Part shown: positions 8,959 through 46,748 of the stretch, piece after piece
How positions within the stretch are numbered: the first letter of the stretch is position 1
Layout: every line of letters starts with the position of its first letter
Source: an uncultured Holophagales bacterium
GTDB lineage: Bacteria > Acidobacteriota > Thermoanaerobaculia > Multivoradales > UBA5704
Direction of reading: 5' to 3'
NCBI GenBank assembly: GCA_963842525.1
Contig: CAWJGT010000011.1
Span: 160,001-224,000, forward strand
DNA: 64,000 nucleotides
Translations under genes and position numbers: made by a program
The notes under the pieces: model-generated
The model's database searches: none
What the model saw: only the letters and a program-made list of their open reading frames with translations
What the model was told of the DNA's origin: nothing

Positions 8959-8985
8959 TCGTTACTCTCAGAACCTAGTTCGCGC

Positions 8986-9056
8986 GGTCAACGCTTCGGG
9001 GCCTCAACGCGCATCTGGGCGCGAGCCCAAGTGTCCGCTGCAGGCCGGCGTTGGCC
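8986..9056 (-). other. Integron attC site
   Basis: Minus strand reads GGCCAAC-gccGGCCTGCAGCgg...gcGTTGAGGCC-ccgaagc-GTTGACC, i.e. R''/L''/L'/R' imperfect palindrome, 71 bp, just after a stop codon. Confidence 0.75.
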
Positions 9057-9089
9057 GTCGACACAGCACATTTGCAATATCGACGTTTG

Positions 9090-10151
9090 TCATTCCGCGG
9101 ATGCAACCCACCCCCCACCTGCTTTTGTGAACCTACGCGTTGCTGTTTCAGTGCTGGTATCCCCCCCCATAAAGAACTTCATCAGCATGGAAACCCCCTC
9201 AGCATGTGCATCCCCGGCTTCGGTTCCCTCGGTTGAATAGAACGTTGGCTTCGAGACAATTTGGTAAGTGCAGAAATAGCCCGCTCCGTACGACGCTACA
9301 TTGCATCCCAGTTTTTCGAACTCTACAATCTCGATTGCTATACCGGCCAGCATATTCTCAGTTGTCACGGTATTGGAGTCCTTTACCACACCGCCTCTTC
9401 TCTTAATCTGGCCGAGTAGCGCTTCTTTCATTTCCTTCTCGCTTGGTTCGTCATAATGGGGTGGCTTGACCGAGGATCCCTCGTTAATTCTGACATCAAT
9501 GCTACCGCTGCCTCCTTGAAAGATGTTAGGGCTAGTAGAGCCATGGCTTTCTTGTTTCGCAGGCACAGACTCGACAGCTTCCTCCCGCACCGAATGGGCC
9601 GGCCCATTGGCCTTTCTGATCTCCCGAAGTTCCTGATCGACTTTAGTAAAAGTCTCGAGTGGTACATACTTTTGACGGACATCTTCCTGCAAAATATAAG
9701 TGCCTTGCCTCACCACATCAAGTTTAGCTACCCGGAGAATGAAATCGTAGGCGCTGATGCCAGCTATGAAACTGCCCAAAATAGCTCCAAGGAAGTACAT
9801 CCAAGGCGATTCTTCGATTCGCGCCTTGAGAGACATACCACGCTCCCGCTCGAACTTTCCTGGTGGGGCAAGATGTCTCCCGCCAGGAGATGGCGCAGGC
9901 GTCCTGGCCCAGATCAGCCAGCGGTGTAACAAGAAGGCGCCAGTGCCGCCCCCGATGAGGCCGAACACGAAAGTCGTGCCGGTTGCCCCAGTGGCCCAAG
10001 CGATAGCCCCTCTTGCCAAGAGAAGAAGAAGCGCTCCACCAAGGGACAGCAGCGAGTAAAAGCCTAGCAGTTTCAGAAGACGCAGGGCCGCTTCACGCTG
10101 CCATCTGGGCGACGGGAGAACTGAGGTGAAACGCAAATCGTCAAGAGTCAC
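9090..10151 (-). CDS. Hypothetical membrane protein (cassette gene)
   Basis: 353-aa ORF with N-terminal TM helices and lower GC than the flanks. It could be two genes (second start MSLKARIEE). Confidence 0.6.
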   Translation of the reverse strand: MTLDDLRFTSVLPSPRWQREAALRLLKLLGFYSLLSLGGALLLLLARGAIAWATGATGTTFVFGLIGGGTGAFLLHRWLIWARTPAPSPGGRHLAPPGKFERERGMSLKARIEESPWMYFLGAILGSFIAGISAYDFILRVAKLDVVRQGTYILQEDVRQKYVPLETFTKVDQELREIRKANGPAHSVREEAVESVPAKQESHGSTSPNIFQGGSGSIDVRINEGSSVKPPHYDEPSEKEMKEALLGQIKRRGGVVKDSNTVTTENMLAGIAIEIVEFEKLGCNVASYGAGYFCTYQIVSKPTFYSTEGTEAGDAHAEGVSMLMKFFMGGDTSTETATRRFTKAGGGWVASAE

Positions 10152-10477
10152 GGGACACCTCGGTAGGCTCTAACTACGCAAGCTATTCCGAATACGAGGA
10201 TACTGCAGAGGAGGAGGAAGTCTGCGGTCGAGAACAACTCGTGAAGAGTGATCAGCCCAAGGAAGGAGAGAGCCTCACCTGGCCAGAGCCAATGGACGAG
10301 ACCTTCTATTCCTCTCATCCCCAGAAGAATGACGACGACGACAGAACAATGAGATATCCACTCGATGGCTGCCCATGCGGCTCTCTTGAATGCATGCTCG
10401 GCAAGACCTGCCAGCGTCTGCCTTGAGAGTTCTTCTGTCGCCACATCTTGTGACTTGGCAACGGGCTCCGAGGACAT
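10148..10477 (-). CDS. Hypothetical 2-TM protein (cassette gene)
   Basis: RBS AGGAGG, two hydrophobic segments, 4-nt overlap with the next ORF. Confidence 0.65.
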   Translation of the reverse strand: MSSEPVAKSQDVATEELSRQTLAGLAEHAFKRAAWAAIEWISHCSVVVVILLGMRGIEGLVHWLWPGEALSFLGLITLHELFSTADFLLLCSILVFGIACVVRAYRGVP

Positions 10478-10519
10478 CAGCGCCTCCTATTGAATGTTGC
10501 ATTCACCATCTTCTCTGCC

Positions 10520-10612
10520 GGCTAACGCTCTGCGCTTGAGCGGCCGGCGGCAATAGACGCTCGGACATGACGAGTCGGTCGCCCGCCGGTCTGCTCCAAG
10601 CGCTGGTTAGCC
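10520..10612 (-). other. Integron attC site
   Basis: Minus strand reads GGCTAAC-ca-GCGCTTGGAGCAGACCGGC...GCCGGCCGCTCAAGCGC-agagc-GTTAGCC, 93 bp, canonical architecture with an extrahelical base. Confidence 0.9.
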
Positions 10613-10621
10613 AGCAATCGT

Positions 10622-11693: not shown

Positions 11694-13125
11694 ATGCCGA
11701 CTTACGAGGAACTCCTTCAAGAGAACTCTGAGCTTCGCCAAGACAACGGTGAGCTTCGCCAGCGGGTGGAGGAGCAGGAGCGCCAGATTGCGCACCTGAA
11801 GCGCCGAATCGTCGATCTGGAGAAACTTGTCGAGGAGCTACGGCGCCGGGGCAAACGCCAGGCTGCCCCCTTCTCGAAGGGAGATCCGAGCGAGGATCCC
11901 AAGTCTCCAGGGCGCAAAGCCGGGGATCAATATGGTCAGCAAGCGACTCGAGCTGTGCCCGATCACGTCGACGAAACCATCGTGGTGGAGTGCCCGCTGT
12001 ATTGTGAGCACTGTGGGGGTCAGGTCATTCCGCAGGGCGAAGCTCGCCAGTATCAGACCGATCTGCCGCCGATTCGGCCGGTGACGACGGAGTTCATCCT
12101 CCATTATGGGAAGTGCTCGGCATGTGGCCGGGAAGCTGTGGGGCGTCACCCGCGCCAGACTTCCCAGGCGTTCCGGGTCGGCAACGTGCAACTCGGTCCA
12201 AACGTGTTGGGGCTCGCCGCCTGGCTCAACAAGGTCGGAGGCTTGAGCTACGGCAAGATCGCCGCGTTGCTGAAGGAGCTGGCTGGACTGTCTGTGTCGC
12301 GCTCGGCCCTGTGCCGCGCGCTGCTTCGCATGAGTAAGAAGCTGGAGCCCTTGTACGAGGAGCTGAAGGCGAAGATCCGGAGCTCTCCTGTGGTGTACCC
12401 GGACGAGACGGGCTGGCGGGAGGGGGGCTATAGCGTGTGGTTGTGGGTGTTCACCAATCGCAGCGAGACGGTCTACAGCATCCAGCCGGGTCGTGGCTAT
12501 GCCGAGGCCTCTGAGGTCCTGGGGGAGGGCTTTGTCGGCGTGCTGGTGGCTGATGGTTGGGCTCCCTATCAGAAATTTGAAGAAGCGACTCATCAGACCT
12601 GTCTGGCGCATCTGTTGCGCCGTTGCGAGGAGCTGCTGGAGAAGGCGACAGGGGGTGCGGTGCGCTTTCCTCGGGCGGTGAAAGAGATCCTGCAGGCCGC
12701 CTTGGAGGCGCGAGATCAGCGGGACGCGGGCAAGCTCAGCGGCGAGGCGCTGGAGAAGGTCAAGCAGGACTTGGAGGCTCCAGATGGAAAGGCGTCTGTC
12801 GGGGCAGTTCACGAACCCCGACAACCAGCGTCTGGCTCAGCATTTGATACGTCACCAGGAGCAGCTGTTTGTCTTCCTGGAACGCACGGATGTGGAGGCG
12901 ACCAATTGGCCGGCCGAACAAGGGATTCGCCCGGCGGTCATCAACCGCAAGACATCTGGGGGAAATCGGACGGCCGAGGGGTCCCAGGCGCAAGCGGTCT
13001 TGATGAGTGCCCTGCGCACATTTCAGCAACACCAAGTCGGGACACTCGAGATCTTGCCCCAGCTTCTGCGCAGCCCCCAGCTACCGAAGCTTGAGGCAAT
13101 ACTTCCTGCGTCACAGCCACCGTAA
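11694..13125 (+). CDS. IS66 transposase (frameshift near 12778)
   Basis: Coiled-coil N-terminus, Cys zinc finger, DETGW, ADG..Y, QTCLAHLLR and TNWPAEQGIRPAV motifs. Confidence 0.9.
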
Positions 13126-13255: not shown

Positions 13256-13935
13256 ATTTGAAGAAGCGACTCATCAGACCTGTCTGGCGCATCTGTTGCG
13301 CCGTTGCGAGGAGCTGCTGGAGAAGGCGACAGGGGGTGCGGTGCGCTTTCCTCGGGCGGTGAAAGAGATCCTGCAGGCCGCCTTGGAGGCGCGAGATCAG
13401 CGGGACGCGGGCAAGCTCAGCGGCGAGGCGCTGGAGAAGGTCAAGCAGGACTTGGAGCTTCCAGATGGAAAGGCGTCTGTCGGGGCAGTTCACGAACCCC
13501 GACAACCAGCGTCTGGCTCAGCATTTGATACGTCACCAGGAGCAGCTGTTTGTCTTCCTGGAACGCACGGATGTGGAGGCGACCAATTGGCCGGCCGAAC
13601 AAGGGATTCGCCCGGCGGTCATCAACCGCAAGACATCTGGGGGAAATCGGACGGCCGAGGGGTCCCAGGCGCAAGCGGTCTTGATGAGTGCCCTGCGCAC
13701 ATTTCAGCAACACCAAGTCGGGACACTCGAGATCTTGCCCCAGCTTCTGCGCAGCCCCCAGCTACCGAAGCTTGAGGCAATACTTCCTGCGTCACAGCCA
13801 CCGTAACAGTTCTCGCCACGAGTTATCCGTGGCTCCAGGTCGGTAGCCGCTCGCCCTCGTCAGGTCGCCTGGCCAGCGCGGACGTGTGTCCAGGGAAAAC
13901 CTTCCCCAAAAGTGCCGCTGACGGTAAACAGATAC
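13256..13935 (+). repeat. Direct duplicate of 12575-13254 (3' part of IS66)
   Basis: Identical apart from the indel at the GAGCTC site. Confidence 0.9.
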
Positions 13936-14048
13936 CCTCTACCTTAAAGATTCACCGGCACCCTGTTGCGCCGGCCTATCCTTCAAATCAGCCAGTCAGC
14001 TCTTCTGCTTCTCTCGGGCATGAGGGTGCCAAGTCTCAGGTGTACTAG

Positions 14049-14077
14049 ATCTTACGTCGTATACGTATCCACGTCAA
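14049..14077 (-). promoter_or_regulatory. Sigma70 promoter (Pc-like) facing array A
   Basis: TTGACG-17 nt-TAAGAT, homologous to 19077-19105. Confidence 0.7.
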
Positions 14078-14357
14078 GACCGCGAGGTCGCTGGATATGC
14101 ATTCTCACCAGGCAGGTACCTCGCAACTCGCAAAGGCGTCCTCCTGGATGAGCGAAGGAAGCTCCTCAGGTGGAGCTGACACTACGCAGTATTGATATTT
14201 GACTCACCAGTGGAAGACCTATACCCCGGCGAAGCATGCCCCACGCAGGTGCAACAAAGGATATGCGGGCCGGAATCGGGTATAAGGGCGTCCTAGGACT
14301 GGTGCGGGGCTGTCCCGCGGCAGGACCGACCGTTTGTGGCAAACGGACCCCGCGGCA

Positions 14358-14631: not shown

Positions 14632-14749
14632 GGCTTTCAGGCCGCGGGGGTTGATCGCCTCTCTGCCCTCCGTTGTCCCGGCCCGTTGGGCCGGGTGGAG
14701 AAGAAATTTGCGCGCGCCACACGAGGATTCTCGGATGTAGTAGATCAGG
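14632..14749 (+). repeat. Partial copy of the REP/BIME family targeted by the IS110 element
   Basis: CTTTCAGGCCGC...CCGGCCCGTTGGGCCGGGTGGAG...GTAGTAGATCAGG matches 25135-25205 and the reverse complement of 42843-42880. Confidence 0.7.
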
Positions 14750-16486: not shown

Positions 16487-17551
16487 TCAAAGATCCGTGG
16501 CGTCGGCGGCGGTCAGCTTTTCGTTGAGCAGATAATCATCGCTCAGGTATTTGAGGATCGCGCGGCCGATCTTGGGATCGAACCGTTCCTTGACCGGCCG
16601 GACCACCACCCCTTCGCGGATGTGCTGGTCGGGTAGGGTGGTCTGGCCGCGGCTCAGCTCGGCGATCCGTTCGAGCGAGAACGGTCCGCGCTCGAGAAGC
16701 GGAACGGTGGCGACGCCGTGGTGCTCGCAGAGCGCGGCGAAGTCGTCATAGTCGAGGAAGTGCTCGCCCACGAGGACGTCGAAGGCGGCGAAGCCGAGCC
16801 CGTCGCGCTTGCCGTAGTGCAGGCTTTGCACGCGGCTGCCGTAGATCTCGCCGTAGACGATCGCCACCGGATGCTGCTGCTTGAGCTCGTCGAGCAGGCT
16901 GCGTACCGGCTCCAGGGTGGAGGGGAACCAATAGGTATTTGTGCCGATCTCCTCGGGCGCCGGACGCTTGCGCTGCAGCCCGTGCGAGCCGGCGAGAAGC
17001 TCGCCCTCGACCCAGCCGATGCGGGCATTGGTGCCGTGGATCTTCTCGGTCACCGCGACCTCTTCACCGGGCGCGAGGACTTCGGGGAAGTTGCGCAGGT
17101 TCTCGATATCGGTGTACCGCTGGAAGAGCGGATGGTTGGGCTCGGAATCGCCGGCCGAGAACTTCACCGGCGGCCGGAACTTGCCGATCCCGTAGTGCTC
17201 GCGCACGTCGGTCCCCACCGGCCAGCTCGGATCGTCGGGCCGCACCACCAGCCCGAAGGAGGGCTCGCCGCGCAGGCGCACCTGGCGGACGACGAGGTCG
17301 CGCTGGCCCTCGACGTTGGTGCGCTCGGAGAGGTAGCTCACCACGCCGATGCGCTCGGCCATCTCCCGCGGCAGGGTGCTGTCCGGCGGGATGAAGACCA
17401 CCCGCTCGCCGGGCGCGAACTCGGGCGAGCCGTCCTCGCGCTTGCGGATCACCGCCTGCCAACCCTTGATGCGGGCGAGGAAGAGGCGGTCGGCATTGGG
17501 GTGGGGATGGACGGATTCGATTTCGACGACGTTGGCGATCACCGATGACAT
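16487..17551 (-). CDS. RNA ligase, DRB0094 family
   Basis: N-terminal HPNADRL OB-like domain, motif I TEKIHGTN, GEIYG, FDV, REGVV, ILK. Confidence 0.9.
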   Translation of the reverse strand: MSSVIANVVEIESVHPHPNADRLFLARIKGWQAVIRKREDGSPEFAPGERVVFIPPDSTLPREMAERIGVVSYLSERTNVEGQRDLVVRQVRLRGEPSFGLVVRPDDPSWPVGTDVREHYGIGKFRPPVKFSAGDSEPNHPLFQRYTDIENLRNFPEVLAPGEEVAVTEKIHGTNARIGWVEGELLAGSHGLQRKRPAPEEIGTNTYWFPSTLEPVRSLLDELKQQHPVAIVYGEIYGSRVQSLHYGKRDGLGFAAFDVLVGEHFLDYDDFAALCEHHGVATVPLLERGPFSLERIAELSRGQTTLPDQHIREGVVVRPVKERFDPKIGRAILKYLSDDYLLNEKLTAADATDL

Positions 17552-18035: not shown

Positions 18036-18398
18036 GCGAACAAGATCGACCGGCAGGTACTCCGGGTCCGTCGTGTCATCCTGAGCGTAGCGAAGGATCT
18101 GGGCGGCGGGAAACGTCCCAGAATCCAAGCCGGAGCGGACTCGCGGCCTCCCTTTCAGACAGGGAGAGGCTCGCTCCTCGTGGAGCCCGCCGCGAAGTCG
18201 CCGTAGTCGGAATCGAGGCTGCGCGAGTGAACCTGTTGTCATCTACGGCCGAGCTGTGCCGCCAGGGACTGCACACGCCAAGTCGTTGACTGCCAAGCAG
18301 ATTCCACCGAGATCGAAGCTCTGCTCATGGACCCGGGACAACGTGCCACGGTCCATGGATCATGCGTCAGGGACCGCACTTCATGTGCCATGGACCGC

Positions 18399-18692
18399 AG
18401 TCAACGTGCCGTTTCCTTTAGTCAATGCTTGAGGCACCCGGGTCCGTGGCCCGTTTCCTACAGTCAATGCTTGAAGGCCCCGGGTCCGCGTGCCGTTTCC
18501 TTTAGTCCATGCTACAGGGCCCCGGGTCCGCGTGGCGTTTCCTGTAGTCAATGCTTCAAGGCCCCGGGTCCGCGCCCCGTTTCCTGTAGTCAATGCTTGA
18601 GGACCCCGGGTCCGCGTGCCGTTTCCTACAGTCAATGCTTGAAGGACCGCGGTCCGCGTGACCCTTTATCCAGTCCTCACCTGAGGGACCGC
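18399..18692. repeat. Tandem repeat, seven 42-bp units (2 x 21), with degenerate units back to about 18330
   Basis: Units start at 18399, 18441, 18483, 18525, 18567, 18609 and 18651. Consensus GGTCCGCGTGCCGTTTCCTNYAGTCAATGCTTGARGGCCCCG. Confidence 0.9.
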
Positions 18693-19076
18693 GGTCCATG
18701 AGGCCTGCCGCGCGGACGACGTCGCTCGAAGTGCACGCGACGTGACGACGGGCGGAGGCAGTGCCGCTCTTCGAGCGGCCGGCGTCTTATACAGCCCTGT
18801 CGCGAGGGACTTCAGACGAACCGCGCGAGCTCAAGGGCAAGACTTGAGCCGCGTCCTAAAATGCCTTCATACCCGATTCCGTGACGTAGATCGAGTCCCT
18901 GCACCGGCCACGGTCTGCCCTCTCTGACGCAGAAGAATTTTTGGTCTGCCTGAAACGCCAAGTGCCTATAGGGCCAAGTCCCACCTCGCGAGACGCCTTC
19001 GCTCGTCATCACGACGTAATTGCGACTCTCAAGGCACCAGCCCGGCCAGAATGCCTATTCACACAAGCCTATGGTC

Positions 19077-19105
19077 TTGACGCGGATACGGAAAAGATGT
19101 AAGGT
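19077..19105 (+). promoter_or_regulatory. Sigma70 promoter (Pc-like) facing array B
   Basis: TTGACG-17 nt-TAAGGT. Confidence 0.7.
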
Positions 19106-19199
19106 CAGCTAAATCAAGGAGGCTAAGAATCTTGCGCGCTCAAAACCCTTCGGCCGGCCATGGAGTCAACCGGCAGGTTGTGTCGCATACGCCAGCGCG

Positions 19200-19235
19200 C
19201 GGGGTGCCGTCGAATCTGTGAGGCAGAGGTTGGAC
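19200..19235 (+). other. attI-like site heading array B (core GTTGGAC at 19229-19235)
   Basis: GTTGGACGCC is complementary (1 mismatch) to GGCGGCCAAC at the end of the first cassette. The 29 nt upstream of the core match the array A site at 23 positions. Confidence 0.7.
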
Positions 19236-19250
19236 GCCGAAGGAACTAGG

Positions 19251-19907
19251 ATGCCGAGGCACTATATCTACAGAATTGACCACGACACGGGTTATGCTCC
19301 CCGCTTGGCAGGCAGGATCTGCTTCCTGTGTGGCTGCAAGAATACGACCGTGGAGCAATGGGCTGAGAAAGGGAGTTGGGTGATCGGTCTTGGTGGAAAC
19401 GGAACGGGAAAACCTGGCGCATTGATCTATGCAATGGAGGTCGACTCGACCCCTACGTTTGAGGAGTTTTCTCGGCAGTATCCAGCCGAAACAAGATACC
19501 TGCACAAATGGGGCACTACTCCAGAAGCTCCGGTGCTTCTATCACGCCATTTCTACTACTTTGGCCAGGATGCACCGAAGCTTCCGACAGCTCTCGGGCA
19601 TCTCGCCATCCGGAGCCAAGGTTGTAAGCGCGTGAAGGACGATGACATCTTGAAGCTTCAACGCTTCTTGGCTCGACACTACAGAGGACCTGGCCGGCCG
19701 AACAACCCTTTCAACTTTGATACGGGAGAAATTGACACCGACCCTTGCCTCATTGACTGTAGCCGTGATTCGGGTAGTTTAAAATCTGGTGGGGAAGGTC
19801 TGTTTACACTCCCCGGTGACAGAAAGAGCACTCGGCGGCCAACCCGGCGCGCGAGCTGGCAAGCCAAGGGGGAGGCGGCCAACCCGGCCGATCGAGCGGA
19901 CGGCTGA
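19251..19907 (+). CDS. Nucleotide-modification-associated domain 2 (Nmad2)-like protein (cassette gene)
   Basis: YIYRIDHDTGYAP...CFLCGCK...G.WVIGLGG...LIYAMEV...VLLSRHFYYFG motif order. Confidence 0.7.
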   Translation: MPRHYIYRIDHDTGYAPRLAGRICFLCGCKNTTVEQWAEKGSWVIGLGGNGTGKPGALIYAMEVDSTPTFEEFSRQYPAETRYLHKWGTTPEAPVLLSRHFYYFGQDAPKLPTALGHLAIRSQGCKRVKDDDILKLQRFLARHYRGPGRPNNPFNFDTGEIDTDPCLIDCSRDSGSLKSGGEGLFTLPGDRKSTRRPTRRASWQAKGEAANPADRADG

Positions 19908-19931
19908 GCCGCCGCTCATCGGCATCCTCGT
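19877..19931 (+). other. attC site interrupted in R' by the group II intron (completed by 21968-21972)
   Basis: GGCCAAC-ccgg-CCGAT(C)GAGCGG...CCGCTCATCGG-catcctc-GT|TGGGC. Rejoining gives a 60-bp attC with GTTGGGC. Confidence 0.85.
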
Positions 19932-21967
19932 GTGCGCCAAGACAAGCTTGGCGCTTCTTGCAGGGTGTAAGTCCCTGCCGGGTAAGGTCTAACCAACCAC
20001 CCGTACCGAGTGTTGCAGATCTGGCGGAGGAGAGTCGACGTCGACGAACCGAACAAGAGGTCTGGAGCGTACACAGGGAACCATGTAGGCCGTAAGGGAG
20101 ACCGCACCTCCCCCAGGTCTGGTACAGCCCCGAAAGCGCCGATTACAGATGCAGGCGGCGATCGTTTACGTTTGCGAGAAGCCCACGCGAAGGAATCGCT
20201 TTGGTGAGATTCTGGAAGCCTGCCGGGGTCATCAGGACATGGCATGCATGGAGAGGAGCGTCGAAGAACTTGGGAGACCCCATTGATTCCTGCACTCTTA
20301 GAGAGGCAATCTGCAAGGCGCGAGGCTGGCTAGGCACAGAAGGGGAAACCCGGACCCAGAGAGAATGCCTGGCGCCTAAACGGAGGATCGACGAGAGATG
20401 ACAGGTAGGCGACCTGAACCGAAAAGGCAAGGGAGACTGAAGATCATTGGGGAGTCGGATCAGCCCATAGTACTCCGAGAACGGGAGAGCCGTTCACATG
20501 GGGAAGGAGCTGACGGGAACCCGTAGCCCGCAAAGGAAACATGACCCAGATGCGACAGGCTGGACAACTCATGCCAACCTCCCTGCGGGGAATAGCGAAC
20601 AAGGCAAGCTCTGACAAGAACCACCGTTTCGGCAATCTCTTTGGTCTGCTGACCATGACGTTCCTTCTGTCCTGCTGGGAGCGAGTCAACAAGAAAGCTG
20701 CCAGCGGCGTGGATCGGGTTTCGGCCCGGGCTTACGCGAAGGATCTGGCGGGAAACGTAAGAGACCTTTGGGAGCGTGTGAAGCGGGGTAGTTACCGGGC
20801 GAAGCTGGTCCGGCGACGTCACATTCCGAAGGAAGGGAGTACAGCGACTCGGCCACTGGGGATCCCGGCGGTGGAGGACAAGCTGCTCCAGATCGCAGTC
20901 TCCCGCATTCTCAATGCCATCTACGAGCCGATCTTTCTGCCGTGCAGTTGGGCATACAGGCTCGGCCGTAATGCGCGGGAAGCAGTGCGGACGCTGAAAC
21001 AGGAGCTTCAGTTTGGTTGCTACGGTTACGTTGTGGAGATTGACATCAAGGGGTTCTTCGACCGGATCGACCATGAGAAGCTCATGGAGATGCTCGAGCT
21101 GAGAATCAACGATCGGCCGTTCCTGCGGCTGATCTGGAAATGGCTCAAGGCGGGAGTATTGGAAGAGGGTGGGAAGGTGATCCACCCGGACACGGGCTGT
21201 CCGCAAGGTAGTGGGATATCACCCGTGCTTGCCAATATCTACCTTCACTACGTTCTGGACCTTTGGTTCACGGAGGTGGTGAAGCCCCGGTGTAAAGCGC
21301 GGGCCTTCATGTGCCGGTTTGCGGACGATGTGGTGTTCGCCTTCCAGTGGCATGAGGAGGCCGAGCGGTTCTTCCGGGTCCTGCCGAAACGGCTGGCGAA
21401 GTACGGGTTGGAGCTTTCGGCGGAGAAGAGCCGGATGGTGCGGTTCAGCCGGTTCCAACTGGGCAAGAGCTCGGAGAGGTTCGACTTCCTCGGGTTCGAG
21501 TTCCGCTGGGTGAAGGACCACAAGGGAGTGGCCCGGGTGACGTGCCGGACATCGCGCAAGCGGCTTCGGGCGTCGTTGACCAGGGTGACCGAGTGGATCA
21601 AGGCCGAGCGGCACCTGCCGGTACGCCAGTTGGTGGGGGCGTTGAACGCGAGGCTTCGTGGGCACTATAATTACTACGGGGTGATCGGCAACTACGCAAG
21701 CCTATGCTCATACTTCAATCAAGCGAAACGGCTGCTGATGAAGTGGTTGGGGAGGCGGAGTCAAAAGAGCCGGATGAGCTGGGTGAAGTTCAGCGCCCTG
21801 CTGAAGCGATTTCCACTGGAGGAACCCTGGATCGCGGAGAGTCGGCATCGGCAGATGGTTCTTGTCTGAGTTGCTGAGTGCGGAAGCGAGGGTAACCGAA
21901 GAGCCCGGTGCGGAAAAACCGCACGCCGGGATCTGTGCGGGGGGCGCTTCGGCGTCCCTACCGCGAC
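19932..21967 (+). mobile_element. Group II intron (IIB/class E-like by IEP and D5 appearance)
   Basis: 5' GTGCG, D5 GAGCCCGGTGCGGAAAAACCGCACGCCGGGATC, D6 ending CCCTACCGCGAC. Removal restores GTTRRRY. Confidence 0.9.
20541..21869 (+). CDS. ltrA: Group II intron reverse transcriptase/maturase, no endonuclease domain
   Basis: RPLGIP, DIKGFFD, GCPQGSGISP, RFADD, FDFLGF and maturase X (LRGHYNYY). Alternative start at 20571. Confidence 0.95.
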   Translation: MTQMRQAGQLMPTSLRGIANKASSDKNHRFGNLFGLLTMTFLLSCWERVNKKAASGVDRVSARAYAKDLAGNVRDLWERVKRGSYRAKLVRRRHIPKEGSTATRPLGIPAVEDKLLQIAVSRILNAIYEPIFLPCSWAYRLGRNAREAVRTLKQELQFGCYGYVVEIDIKGFFDRIDHEKLMEMLELRINDRPFLRLIWKWLKAGVLEEGGKVIHPDTGCPQGSGISPVLANIYLHYVLDLWFTEVVKPRCKARAFMCRFADDVVFAFQWHEEAERFFRVLPKRLAKYGLELSAEKSRMVRFSRFQLGKSSERFDFLGFEFRWVKDHKGVARVTCRTSRKRLRASLTRVTEWIKAERHLPVRQLVGALNARLRGHYNYYGVIGNYASLCSYFNQAKRLLMKWLGRRSQKSRMSWVKFSALLKRFPLEEPWIAESRHRQMVLV

Positions 21968-22000
21968 TGGGCGACGAACAACTAAAGAGGGACAAGAAAC

Positions 22001-22633
22001 ATGGCTGCAGTGCCCATCTCTACTCGCTCATCGCCTGATGTCGTCGCCAGCCTCTCGGACGCGATCTTCGGCCCGATCCAGAAGGCCTACAGAGTGGGCG
22101 GGTTTGCATTGGCATTCCTTGGCGTCGGGGTCCTTATGATGCTGACCGTCTTCTTGTCCGACACGACTGACTGGCGTGGCAAGGTTCTTTTCGCAGTCGG
22201 GGTGCTTCTAGTTCTAGCAACCGGCGTGCTCTTTCTGCTCAGGGATGTGATGCCTCTTTTTCGAGTTCAGCAGCGCATCGCAGAAAACCGCGAATTCATT
22301 GACGCAGTGCAGAGAACCGCGATTGACTTAACGACCGTGCTCGACTCTGTACAGGAACTTGCTGTCGAGAACGCCGAGCGAGTCACGGAGGCATTCGATA
22401 AGCTGCGTCCTGTCGTGCGTGCTCTACCTGTTGTCGGTGCCGTGGCCGACAGCGGTCCAGTAGTTTCAACAGCTGCGACGGCGCGAAAGATCGTTGAGAT
22501 CGCGACCAAGAGCCGCAACGTTATTGCCAATGTCCGTGAAGCCCTTATTTCTAGCAACCCAGAGCCTCTTCGACAATATTCGGCGGAGCTTGAGCAGATC
22601 AGTGCTTGGTTCAGAGAAGCCGCGTCGCCCTGA
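22001..22633 (+). CDS. Hypothetical 2-TM + helical protein (cassette gene)
   Basis: Starts about 30 nt after the R' box and is followed by R'' TCGCCTAAC, complementary to GTTGGGCGA. Confidence 0.7.
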   Translation: MAAVPISTRSSPDVVASLSDAIFGPIQKAYRVGGFALAFLGVGVLMMLTVFLSDTTDWRGKVLFAVGVLLVLATGVLFLLRDVMPLFRVQQRIAENREFIDAVQRTAIDLTTVLDSVQELAVENAERVTEAFDKLRPVVRALPVVGAVADSGPVVSTAATARKIVEIATKSRNVIANVREALISSNPEPLRQYSAELEQISAWFREAASP

Positions 22634-22669
22634 CGTGACTGGGCGGCAAGGGTACATGAGTAGGCGATC

Positions 22670-22729
22670 GCCTAACAATGCGCTGCACAGGACGGCTGAC
22701 GTCGCGCGGTGAGCTCCCATACGTACTGC
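22670..22729 (+). other. Degenerate attC site
   Basis: GCCTAAC-aatgc-GCTGCAC...GTGAGC-tcccatac-GTACTGC. R' is non-canonical. Confidence 0.55.
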
Positions 22730-22787
22730 CGGCGCAACAGCCGCCACGCAATCGACATCAACAGCCCAACGCAAGTTTGAGGCGACT

Positions 22788-23281: not shown

Positions 23282-23408
23282 AAGAGTTGTTGCAGCACCT
23301 TCCACTCGGCGCAGCCTAATCAGACGTCTCGGAAATTACACAGCTATCAGAAAGAGAAACTCAGTCAGGCTTGCCGGCATGCGTCTTTGCGACCCAAGGG
23401 GTCGCGAG

Positions 23409-23563
23409 AGCCGAGCCCGGGCTGAGGCCGCAGGCCGATGCCCTGGGTCAACAGGGCCCCACAGCCATGCGGCCTGAAAGGCCGCGAGAACCTATCTCTT
23501 GCGGCCTTTCAGGCCGCATCGGTGGGCTACCTTTCTACCCAGGGCATCGGCCTTCGGCCTCAG
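23409..23563. repeat. REP/BIME element (CCCAGGGCATCGGCC.CGGCCTCAGCCCTGGG and GGCCTGAAAGGCC hairpins) interrupted by IS110
   Basis: Homologous to 42821-43032. An empty target copy lies at 23413-23448 on the minus strand. Confidence 0.8.
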
Positions 23564-23647
23564 ATGCTATGCAGGGCGGGGGATGCAAAAGCGGGTCGCC
23601 GGTTGTATGTTTCGGGGGAACTTTAGCGGTTAGAAAGGAGAACCCCG

Positions 23648-24784
23648 ATGAACCAGACAACCCGCATTGCAGAGTCTACGCGAACGGAGGCGGTGTTACA
23701 TATGGCCCTGGAGCTCGGCGCCAGCGAGTGGAAGCTGGGGTTTGGTGTAGAGGCTGGACGGAGGGCAAGTCAGCGGACAGTTGCAGCCGGGGACCTTGCC
23801 GGGCTGATGCTGGAGATCGCGCGGGCCAAACATCGCCTTGGCGTGCCGGAGTCGGCTCGGGTGGTGAGTTGCTACGAGGCCGGACGGGATGGATTCTGGC
23901 TCCACCGGTTCCTGCTGTCGGAGGGAGTGGAAAACGTTGTCATGGACTCCTCGAGCATCGAGGTGAATCGGCGGCATCGCCGGGCCAAGACGGATGGGGT
24001 GGACGTGGAGAAGTTGCTGTCGTTGTTGATCCGTTACGAGCGCGGGGAGAAGAAGGTGTTCGGGGTAGCGCACGCGCCGACCCCCGAGCAGGAGGACGAG
24101 CGTCACCTGGCTCGGGAGCTTGAGTCTCTGAAGCAGGAGCGCACGGCCCACACCAATCGGATCAAGGGCCTGCTGGCCAGCGTGGGGGCTCGGGGGGTGA
24201 AAGTCGGCAAGGGCTTTCTGCAGCAGCTGGATCAGGCGAGGCAGTGGAACGGCGAGAGGCTGCTGGCGAGCTTGCGGGAGCGTTTGAGGCGAGAGGGCGA
24301 GCGTCTGGCTGTGCTGGAGAGTCAGATTGCCGAGCTCGAGCGGTTTCGCCGGACGGCCAGCGTGGAAGCGACGGAGAAGGTGCAGCGGCTGCAAGAGCTC
24401 AAGGGGATCGGAGGCAACAGTGGTTGGCTGTTCGTGGTGGAGTTCTTCGGCTGGCGGCAGTTCCGCAACCGCCGTGAGGTGGCCGGTTTGGCGGGTCTGA
24501 CGCCGATGCCTTATCAGAGCGGTGACACGGTCAACCACGAACAAGGGATCAGCAAGGCGGGGAATCGTCGGGTCCGGGCGATGGCGATCGAGATCGCTTG
24601 GGGCTGGTTGCGCTTCCAACCGCAGAGTCGCCTGAGCTTGTGGTTTCAGGAGCGTTATGGTCCTGGGAGCCGCCGATCTCGGCGGGTGGGGATCGTGGCC
24701 CTCGCCCGCAAGCTGCTGATCGCGCTGTGGCGCTATCTGGACTACGGTGTGATTCCTGAGGGTGCTGAGCTGAAGACGAAGTAA
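23648..24784 (+). CDS. IS110 DEDD recombinase/transposase
   Basis: CYEAG, AKTD..D, GLTPMPYQSG, GISKAGN and ALARKLL motifs. RBS AAGGAG. Confidence 0.95.
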   Translation: MNQTTRIAESTRTEAVLHMALELGASEWKLGFGVEAGRRASQRTVAAGDLAGLMLEIARAKHRLGVPESARVVSCYEAGRDGFWLHRFLLSEGVENVVMDSSSIEVNRRHRRAKTDGVDVEKLLSLLIRYERGEKKVFGVAHAPTPEQEDERHLARELESLKQERTAHTNRIKGLLASVGARGVKVGKGFLQQLDQARQWNGERLLASLRERLRREGERLAVLESQIAELERFRRTASVEATEKVQRLQELKGIGGNSGWLFVVEFFGWRQFRNRREVAGLAGLTPMPYQSGDTVNHEQGISKAGNRRVRAMAIEIAWGWLRFQPQSRLSLWFQERYGPGSRRSRRVGIVALARKLLIALWRYLDYGVIPEGAELKTK

Positions 24785-24982: not shown

Positions 24983-25242
24983 CCTGCACACTCCGGGCAA
25001 GCGCCAGACGGACTGAGAACCAAGAAGCGAGAAAACCGGTGACAGGAGGGGGGGCCAGGAAAGGGAAAACGACGAACCACCACCCCGAGACGCTTGACAC
25101 CGGTGGCCCACATAGAAGCCCTGGGCTCCGTTCTGCCGGCCCGTTGGGCCGGGTGGAGACGAAATCTGCGCGCCGCACGAGGATTCTCAGGGGTAGTAGA
25201 TCAGGGCTGTACGGTGGCAGGCTCCGACTGAAGGCCGGCACT

Positions 25243-46648: not shown

Positions 46649-46748
46649 GGAAGCGCTCGGGGGCTGGTGCCTTCTGCGGTCTTCAAAACCGTTGTCCCGT
46701 GCCGGTTGCGGCATGGGGGGTGGGTTCGATTCCCATGCGCTTCCGCCA
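46649..46748 (+). tRNA. selC: tRNA-Sec (UCA)
   Basis: 8-bp acceptor stem GGAAGCGC/GCGCTTCC, anticodon loop CTTCAAA, long variable arm, GTTCGATTC, GCCA end. Confidence 0.95.

Follow-up and report, generated by a model that had tools for sequence, protein, structure and literature searches.

Characterised group II introns of attC, the recombination site of integron cassettes, include those of class C. These IIC-attC introns (S.ma.I2 and relatives) are mobile, encode proteins without an endonuclease (En) domain and lie beside the core GTT in the attC bottom strand, opposite to the direction of cassette transcription (PMC3001079). In the passages drawn on here, class C introns are described as being without the second exon-binding site, EBS2 (Nagy et al. 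2013, PMC3753933), and as using stem-loops for targets, and the targeting of attC and of terminators is said to be restricted to that class (Zimmerly and Semper 2015 review, PMC4424553); what is said of these and of the papers cited below is limited to such passages. Sonbol & Siam (2021, PMC7923331) describe UHB.I2, a IIB1 (CL1) intron that directly follows an attC and shares the orientation of the cassettes, and H.ha.F1/F2, two 5'-truncated class E fragments found after attC-like hairpins in an integrase-less cluster of attC sites lacking integron integrases (CALIN). They speculate on a role for the top-strand hairpin, including stem-loop use by IIB introns, and cite a IIC intron in the attC top strand of Enterobacter cloacae (Rodriguez-Martinez et al. 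2012). Here we describe a group II intron from a stretch of 64,000 nucleotides (the window; positions 160,001 to 224,000 of contig CAWJGT010000011.1, assembly GCA_963842525.1) of an uncultured Holophagales bacterium. It splits an attC site in its top strand, in the orientation of the cassettes, and probably finds that site by base pairing.

The intron and the attC site that it splits

The window belongs to contig C11 of the host genome (G000), which comprises 9.95 Mb in 34 contigs and is 96% complete. All positions are those of the window unless a contig or locus is named, EBS and IBS denote exon- and intron-binding sites, and IEP the intron-encoded protein. The covariance model (CM) and hidden Markov model (HMM) for attC were built solely from 20 unoccupied attC sites of the host genome. 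The features are as follows.

19877..19931, +, 5' part of the attC, forming the 5' exon (CM, HMM, DNA fold)
19932..21967, +, full-length group II intron, 2036 nt, GTGCG...GCGAC (Rfam matches; three genomic copies)
19968..20239, +, core of ribozyme domain I (RF02005, group-II-D1D4-6, 96.2 bits, gathering score 49)
20138..20143, +, EBS2, GCCGAU, with partner IBS2 ATCGGC at 19918-19923 in the attC L' arm (alignment of 18 introns, covariation)
20168..20173, +, EBS1, ACGUUU, in a hairpin loop, with IBS1 region 19926-19931 (Rfam structure line, alignment)
20231..20231, +, EBS3, A, with partner T at +1, 21968 (alignment, 3' exons)
20541..21869, +, IEP of 442 aa in domain IV, with reverse transcriptase (RT) and maturase (X) domains, no D/En domain and RT motif RFADD (Pfam, TIGR04416)
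21901..21933, +, domain V (D5), 33 nt, AGC triad at 21902-21904 and 5-nt terminal loop AAAAA at 21914-21918 (RF00029 alignment)
21935..21967, +, domain VI (D6), bulged branch-point A at 21960, 7 nt 5' of the 3' splice site (RF00029 alignment)
21968..21972, +, rest of the R' box, TGGGC, the start of the 3' exon; T 21968 is IBS3

The stretch 19932-21967 of the forward strand is a complete group II intron. Its ends, GTGCG at 19932 and ..GAC at 21967, are of the GUGYG and AY form and are identical in three copies in the genome; the boundaries are fixed by these near-identical copies, the flanks of which diverge outside attC. The ribozyme amounts to about 707 nt, 609 nt 5' and 98 nt 3' of the open reading frame (ORF). 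The Rfam model that covers domain I is also matched by every relative tested, and RF00029 matches D5-D6 (21899-21967) at 40.4 bits, barely above its gathering score of 40.

The 5' exon is an attC hairpin, as the initial annotation had it. The CM scores 19872-19939 at 72.7 bits (E 2.6e-19), the HMM scores the window attC at 47.4 bits, and the hairpin, flanked by R'' and R' boxes, has an imperfect DNA fold of -22.9 kcal/mol (z = -4.2). The R'' box, GGCCAAC (19877-19883), departs once from RYYYAAC, and the targets on C3 and C25 carry GCCCAAC. It is followed by the L'' arm (19888-19899) with an extrahelical C at 19893, a bulged A (19900), the loop TGA (19905-19907), the L' arm (19912-19922) and the GT of R' (19930-19931). 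The same layout is found at all three copies: R'' and a spacer lead into an imperfect stem, in which the 5' arm carries an extra C and there is also a bulged A; past the short loop and the return arm come 7 nt of spacer, GT, the intron and then the remainder of R'. A real intron thus sits at the position first proposed, GT/T in R', one base 3' of the canonical G/TT crossover, and neither of its junctions recreates GTTRRRY. Within the frame of the upstream cassette ORF there is also a partial second R'' end of an attC (GGCGGCCAACCCGGC, 19832-19849), 40 nt 5' of the genuine one.

Each of the three copies occupies the same position of a different attC. The copy at C3:360452-362487 is identical to that in the window and the copy at C25:512331-514366 differs at 1 of 2036 nt, whilst the spacers beside the 5' splice site read CCTCGT, AAGCGT and CAGCGT, and the sequence after the intron TGGGC, TGAGA or TGGCC. 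As the identity of the copies extends no further than the hairpin repeat upstream and the second base past the intron downstream, these are three separate insertions and not a segmental duplication. Spread by duplication or recombination of segments carrying intron and attC, instead of by retrohoming, could draw on the close relationship of the three target sites and on one site being met twice among the related loci (L021 and L064). However, these limits of identity, the differing spacers and the occupation by relatives of attC sites of quite different sequence make it a most improbable explanation. Near-identical copies in different attC sites argue for recent mobility, and the intron may well be active or have been so recently.

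Related loci and probable pairing with the attC arm

A search with the IEP gave 117 related loci, 37 in species-representative genomes and 80 in metagenomes. All site counts refer to the 44 at which the 5' end could be placed, the other 73 being on short contigs or having more than 11 mismatches in the first 33 nt; L062 has a flank of 4 nt only, and L021 and L064, being one site, are counted once. Those close relatives to which the genome scan gives a name (82-90% identity) belong to the Acidobacteriota and are for the most part metagenome-assembled genomes (MAGs) of Thermoanaerobaculia, and the close lineage as a whole comes from Thermoanaerobaculia/Acidobacteriota MAGs and soil metagenomes. 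In a quick maximum-likelihood tree of 77 IEP rows, with support from the Shimodaira-Hasegawa-like approximate likelihood ratio test (SH-aLRT) only, this lineage is a 22-row clade (SH-aLRT 100) with its non-attC members nested inside; the row of L047 is a different protein (30% identity) and is to be ignored. With the 609-nt 5' part as query, 5 of the 401 genomes of the class match at E<=0.001, the host included, a lower bound as two candidates were scored per genome. Full-length introns are found in the host and in G269 and G365 of the same family, and matches of only about 30 nt in G097 and G067.

Amongst introns with an ACG EBS1, a 5' flank of at least 60 nt is available for 23 distinct sites; 20 of these are attC (the three of the host and 17 of the 20 of relatives), a count that treats related sequences as independent and so overstates the number of events. 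The initial annotation had called for a check of homologue flanks, and insertion at unrelated non-attC sites, the outcome that would have spoken against its proposal, was not what these 20 further sites revealed. The HMM at E<0.01 matched 14/38 exon windows and 0/68 control windows. At 18 related loci (17 distinct sites) the attC CM match ends 7-8 nt inside the intron, as expected where R' is split. One sublineage (L022, L023, L116) inserts at non-attC sites ending ..GGTT/ (the slash marks the splice site).

The forward strand had been read as the attC top strand, and several lines of evidence agree: there is an extra base in the 5' arm, which we take to fit the extrahelical G of the canonical attC bottom strand, and both the attC model matches and the upstream ORFs run with the intron. 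The HMM matches number 14 on the sense strand of the intron and 0 on the antisense strand, and the CM, which covered 78 of the 117 loci (short fragments and loci with the 3' part only omitted), gave 51 matches at E<0.01, all 51 on the intron strand. The longest upstream frame is in sense at 14/14 related intron-bearing loci, which may be surrounded by attC arrays, with nine sites in L024, for example. Of 40 sites in the host genome (E<0.01), 33 have the longest open frame of their upstream 600 nt on the strand of the attC, and in many cases this frame ends no more than a few tens of bases from the attC. The insertion is therefore in the top strand, co-oriented with the cassettes.

Domain I has a single hypervariable stretch, between CCCCGAAAG and AGAUGCAGG, and this holds EBS2, which covaries with the attC L' arm. 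It reads GCUGCU where the attC has AGCAGC (L014, L024, L041), GCGCUU where the attC has AAGCGC (L021), and GGCGGU where the attC has ACCGCC or ACCGCT (L018, L015), with the match at a constant position of about -14. An EBS2/IBS2 score of at least 5.5 out of 6 was reached by 15/25 cognate pairs against 58/566 non-cognate pairs, and in a permutation test with one representative for each of 15 EBS2 types, 0/5000 permutations reached the observed mean. The +1 base is T at the three copies of the host and at every relative with an ACG EBS1 whose 3' flank could be read. In L022/L023 EBS3 is U and +1 is A, a single covariation event; their EBS1, AACCUU, faces the exon end AAGGTT and their EBS2 likewise matches their own non-attC exons. 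For EBS1 the initial annotation had pointed to CCTCGT as the partner; the CGT of this motif does pair, whilst the CCT is left unpaired in the window copy, and up to six pairs are formed in other copies (AAGCGT at C3).

To judge from these sequences, recognition looks like base pairing of the IIB type with the L'-R' arm. EBS1 would pair with the 3-6 nt at the end of the 5' exon (..CGT, in which GT opens R') and the A of EBS3 with the first T past the splice site. By analogy with other En-minus introns, for which these steps are established, reverse splicing guided by this pairing would bring the intron in after the GT of GTTRRRY, one base 3' of the crossover, and cDNA synthesis may then be primed at replication forks. 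The EBS2 sequences, which differ by sublineage, would each match the attC subfamily of that sublineage, and by such retuning of EBS2 the introns could have spread through the cassette arrays and CALINs of Thermoanaerobaculia. An En-minus, IIB-like intron of IIE/IIF type that homes to the 3' arm of the attC top strand by base pairing is, we believe, the likely explanation of this locus.

Two other accounts of the target have to be weighed against it. Insertion could be guided by structure as in IIC introns, with the ribonucleoprotein reading the attC stem-loop as folded single-stranded DNA together with a short IBS1 and IBS3, and with EBS2 being secondary. Every attC insertion does lie at one fixed position after an imperfect hairpin, CGT/T alone is common to all sites, L017 and L061 match EBS2 poorly and L013 and L135 have a common mismatch; moreover, stem-loop use is known for IIC introns (PMC4424553) and was raised for IIB introns by Sonbol & Siam (PMC7923331). 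However, EBS2 varies by sublineage and tracks the L' arm at a constant distance, and L022/L023 have changed EBS1, EBS2 and EBS3 together and insert at matching non-attC sites, which is the behaviour of base pairing, so that guidance of this structural kind appears unlikely. It is far less probable still that the hairpin repeats are a family of the repetitive extragenic palindromic (REP) type, and not attC, with the intron merely targeting hairpins. The host genome has no intact integron integrase (IntI), and another intron family there follows plain G+C hairpins; but the repeats carry boxes of the RYYYAAC and GTTRRRY form, their 5' arm has an extra base and their loops vary in length, they stand directly after co-oriented ORFs in arrays spaced by about 0.7-3 kb, and they follow intI both in the host genome (as a remnant) and in a relative with an intact gene.

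Homing by base pairing has, however, a number of observations to contend with besides the overstated number of events. The EBS2/IBS2 score is below 5.5 in 10/25 cognate pairs: L017 (4.0) and L061 (4.5; exon end CTT, not CGT) sit in attC sites unmatched by their EBS2, L063 scores 4.5, and L013 and L135 share a 5-of-6 match. Such low-scoring pairs may reflect another guide besides EBS2, ectopic events or later mutations, and these exceptions leave room for a contribution of the hairpin. As IBS2 is within the hairpin stem, folding of the attC would compete with pairing. At the window copy itself only the ACG of EBS1 pairs, with CGT at 19929-19931, which is 3 nt only. Two attC sites of the host genome (C22:19358 and C22:21665) are unoccupied though well matched, and at the 5' junctions of L019, L027 and L065 the attC model does not recognise an attC, although in L019 and L027 the 3' exon begins like the remainder of R'. 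Finally, amongst the contigs of four sequencing runs (1 DNA, 3 RNA) none joins 19931 to 21968 and no empty site was found. Coverage of the intron by contigs from the RNA libraries is confined to parts of the ribozyme, at 85-95% likeness; these contigs stem from relatives, and carry-over of DNA could account for them. Some internal 'joints' in the run contigs were rejected, being of low likeness and from other organisms.

A separate 12-row sister clade of the IEP (45-47% identity; L082-L092, L032, L110) also follows hairpins, with exons ending ..CGTTN/, and this more distant ..GTTN/ clade could be a hint that the habit is older and wider. The attC CM found no match at the 5' junctions of relatives of 45-58% identity, the sole match, at L089, being inside the IEP ORF. 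By eye only, L088, L090, L083 and L110 look attC-like, L088 and L090 resembling an attC split two bases further 3'. On the contig of L032, from a Kiritimatiellia MAG, introns at 372-658 (-; RF02001 and RF01998) and 831-2859 (+; RF02005) point apart, and the roughly 130 nt between them contain a hairpin.

Class of the intron and comparison with described introns

The IEP matches RVT_1 (1.9e-34), GIIM (1.1e-06) and TIGR04416 (332 bits, cut-off 300). Its ORF stops 26 residues past the GIIM match, leaving no DNA-binding/endonuclease domain, in line with the initial annotation. The protein is of little help in assigning a class: its scores against structures in the PDB were without class preference (GsI-IIC RT 133 bits, LtrA 132 bits), and plasmid tblastn gave only unlabelled 'ltrA' matches of at most 42% identity. 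The motif RFADD, which had been offered as a class marker, has to be given up, since FADD and YADD both occur within the close lineage (a scan of the 77 IEP rows in the tree input counted 24 FADD, 46 YADD and 7 with neither).

The RNA features, on the other hand, argue against class C, as first suggested. D5 of class C has a CGC triad, where the window intron has AGC in a 33-nt D5 with a 5-nt loop; and where class C has no EBS2 and a ribozyme of about 400 nt, the present intron has an EBS2 and its 707 or so. Nagy et al. (2013, PMC3753933) give two idiosyncrasies of IIE/IIF introns: the loop of domain V has 5 nt, and a stem-loop of domain I (DId3) carries alpha' at its tip. The loop is present, the IEP is without En and the ribozyme length compares with 450-700 nt for the ORF-less ribozyme of IIE/IIF introns. 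A candidate for alpha', on inspection only, is UUGGU in a terminal loop at about 20200-20205, which could pair with ACCAA at about 19993-19997. On these RNA features the intron would be of IIE/IIF type and not IIC, with E and F left undivided; of the earlier description as class E-like, the part that holds is the IIE/IIF type, the choice of E over F being one that these traits do not separate.

The IIC-attC introns thus share with the window intron mobility, an En-minus IEP and insertion in attC beside the core GTT, but differ in strand (bottom, antisense, against top, sense, at R'), in having no EBS2 where the window intron has a covarying one, and in the length of the ribozyme and the type of D5. 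The Enterobacter cloacae intron, as cited in PMC7923331, resembles it in strand and cassette orientation but is of class C. UHB.I2 and H.ha.F1/F2 are nearer in that they are non-IIC, have En-minus IEPs and lie beside attC in arrays or CALINs; as described in the passages of PMC7923331 cited here, however, they are single cases, one has atypical boundaries (UUGCG..GU) and no conserved exons, and the truncation of H.ha.F1/F2 makes their insertion point unreadable. The lineage of the window intron is full-length and multi-copy, with 20 distinct attC insertions at one nucleotide and EBS2 covariation. RmInt1 (class D) and the IIE/IIF introns of Nagy et al., the latter also alike in their 5-nt D5 loop (PMC3753933), use EBS1/EBS2/EBS3 pairing with the target and no endonuclease, but home to ordinary unique or insertion sequence (IS) targets.

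The opposite-strand arrangement that had been proposed is indeed present here, although as a novelty it was foreshadowed by Sonbol & Siam (2021), so far as the passages cited go. The literature searched, which does not extend to subscription journals, yielded no lineage of IIE/IIF type that is full-length and multi-copy, inserts at a fixed point in R' and shows covariation of EBS2 with attC. What is new, measured against those passages, is the apparent recognition of attC by base pairing and the covariation of EBS2 with the L' arm, the arrangement itself having been partly anticipated. It would represent a second, independent route to the attC niche, by the coding strand and EBS/IBS pairing, next to the antisense stem-loop route of class C (PMC4424553). 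The lineage offers a natural series of retargeted introns in which the evolution of homing specificity can be studied, and sense versus antisense insertion gives a testable contrast for the effects of introns on expression and recombination in integrons.

Cassettes, integrase and neighbouring elements

The window intron stands between two co-oriented cassettes in a low-GC, IS-rich island.

19218..19907, +, ORF of the upstream cassette, with an Nmad2 domain and, for stop codon, the TGA of the attC loop (Pfam PF18753, 5.4e-24)
22001..22633, +, ORF of the downstream cassette, 210 aa, no family match (ORF list, Pfam)
22665..22732, +, degenerate second attC at the end of the downstream cassette, with R'' GCCTAAC at 22670-22676 and R' GTACTGC (CM 25.5 bits, E 4.6e-05)

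About 45 attC-type sites were found in the host genome by iterative nhmmer, in small co-oriented clusters. Neither a cassette promoter (Pc) nor an intact IntI was found near the window copy, nor an intact IntI in the genome scan of the host. The sole integron-integrase gene there, with TIGR02249 and PRK15417 as its best NCBIfam matches, is split by an IS21 element and is without its C-terminal part. This remnant (C9:1070690-1078500; L157) matches TIGR02249 with 108 bits for profile positions 93-174 and with 42 bits for 168-215, IS21 IstA/IstB lying between, and is followed by five co-oriented attC sites; intI and cassettes run in the same direction, as they do at L161, a locus in a relative with an intact IntI. 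Full-length IntI is found in 2/5 related host genomes (481 and 463 bits, cut-off 265), and in one of these two an attC follows the intact IntI on the same strand.

Co-orientation means that the intron could be transcribed with the cassettes and splice out of the transcript. A further reading, which builds on the initial annotation, is that the intron acts as a reversible lock: it would disable the attC for IntI at the DNA level and so fix the neighbouring cassettes, whilst splicing would restore the cassette transcript. The split of R' one base past the crossover, with junctions that do not restore the box, and the shared orientation are what such an arrangement would look like. However, the host is without an intact IntI, the window cluster has only two co-oriented attC, one of them degenerate, the contigs of the four runs gave no read evidence of splicing, and the effect could be a mere side effect of a convenient homing site; we therefore hold this reading to be rather doubtful. 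The same caution applies to the broader and equally tentative proposal that the whole IIE/IIF-type lineage is specialised on attC by RNA-guided pairing with EBS2 retuning and acts as an RNA-reversible lock on cassettes; if true, this would help to fix cassettes in integrase-less CALINs. Splicing in vivo and an effect on recombination by the integrase would both be in keeping with what is established for other En-minus introns, and the intron may have a part in how stable cassette arrays and CALINs are in soil Acidobacteriota.

Two attC-like sites lie on the minus strand of the window, at 8983-9061 (26.4 bits, E 2.6e-05) and 10516-10618 (30.9 bits, E 1.1e-06). As they flank minus-strand ORFs (9090-10151 and 10148-10477), the island has a second small cassette cluster. 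Three IntI-like matches to a tyrosine recombinase were rejected as integron integrases because the integron-specific insert is absent. This gene is present in three identical copies (C3:356796-358856, C9:1900160, C25:539082), each followed by an ORF that, to judge from its N-terminal sequence, would be a transposase of the IS91 type. On C3, the recombinase gene precedes the intron and the attC cluster there (C3:359828, 360393, 363278) by 3 kb.

Further group II introns were seen in the host genome. A second family, family A, has four copies that are 97.5-99.7% identical (C6:149705, C9:858285, C12:17430, C19:363468) and relatives at C34:607939 and C9:1683632. Its D5 is of the AGC type, and the family sits right after G+C-rich REP-like hairpins (..CCAGGCTT/GTGCGCC) and matches no Rfam D1D4 model at gathering score. 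An Acido-Lenti-1 RNA (RF01687, 39.8 bits) lies just downstream of a family A intron at L158 (2761-2807, -), which fits an acidobacterial host. A third family, family B, matches RF02003 and is found at C3:1641215 and C23:404255, with a 5'-truncated copy at C9:828801.

Amongst DNA transposons, as distinct from retroelements, some members of the IS110 family, the IS1111-attC insertion sequences, also target attC. The window contains an IS110-family transposase gene (23648-24784; NF033542, 183 bits) in an element region of 23400-24784, with nested inverted repeats upstream at 23422-23563, and no attC was seen at the ends of this element. Downstream of it, 25121-25205 has an 86-89% copy at 14663-14749. 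Imperfect inverted repeats of about 250 nt (14048-14299 and 18853-19106; three collinear arm pairs, 74-82% complementary) bound a 5-kb segment that ends just upstream of the Nmad2 cassette; within it lie a gene for an RNA ligase (16487-17551, -) and an ORF in which a 42-nt unit is repeated six times in tandem (18347-18704). A direct repeat, 12575-12874 and 13256-13555 (99% over 300 nt, 681-nt spacing), is placed at the 3' part of an IS66-family transposase gene (11694-13094) and just downstream of it. A tRNA-Sec gene lies at 46649-46744 (+; RF01852, 71 bits).

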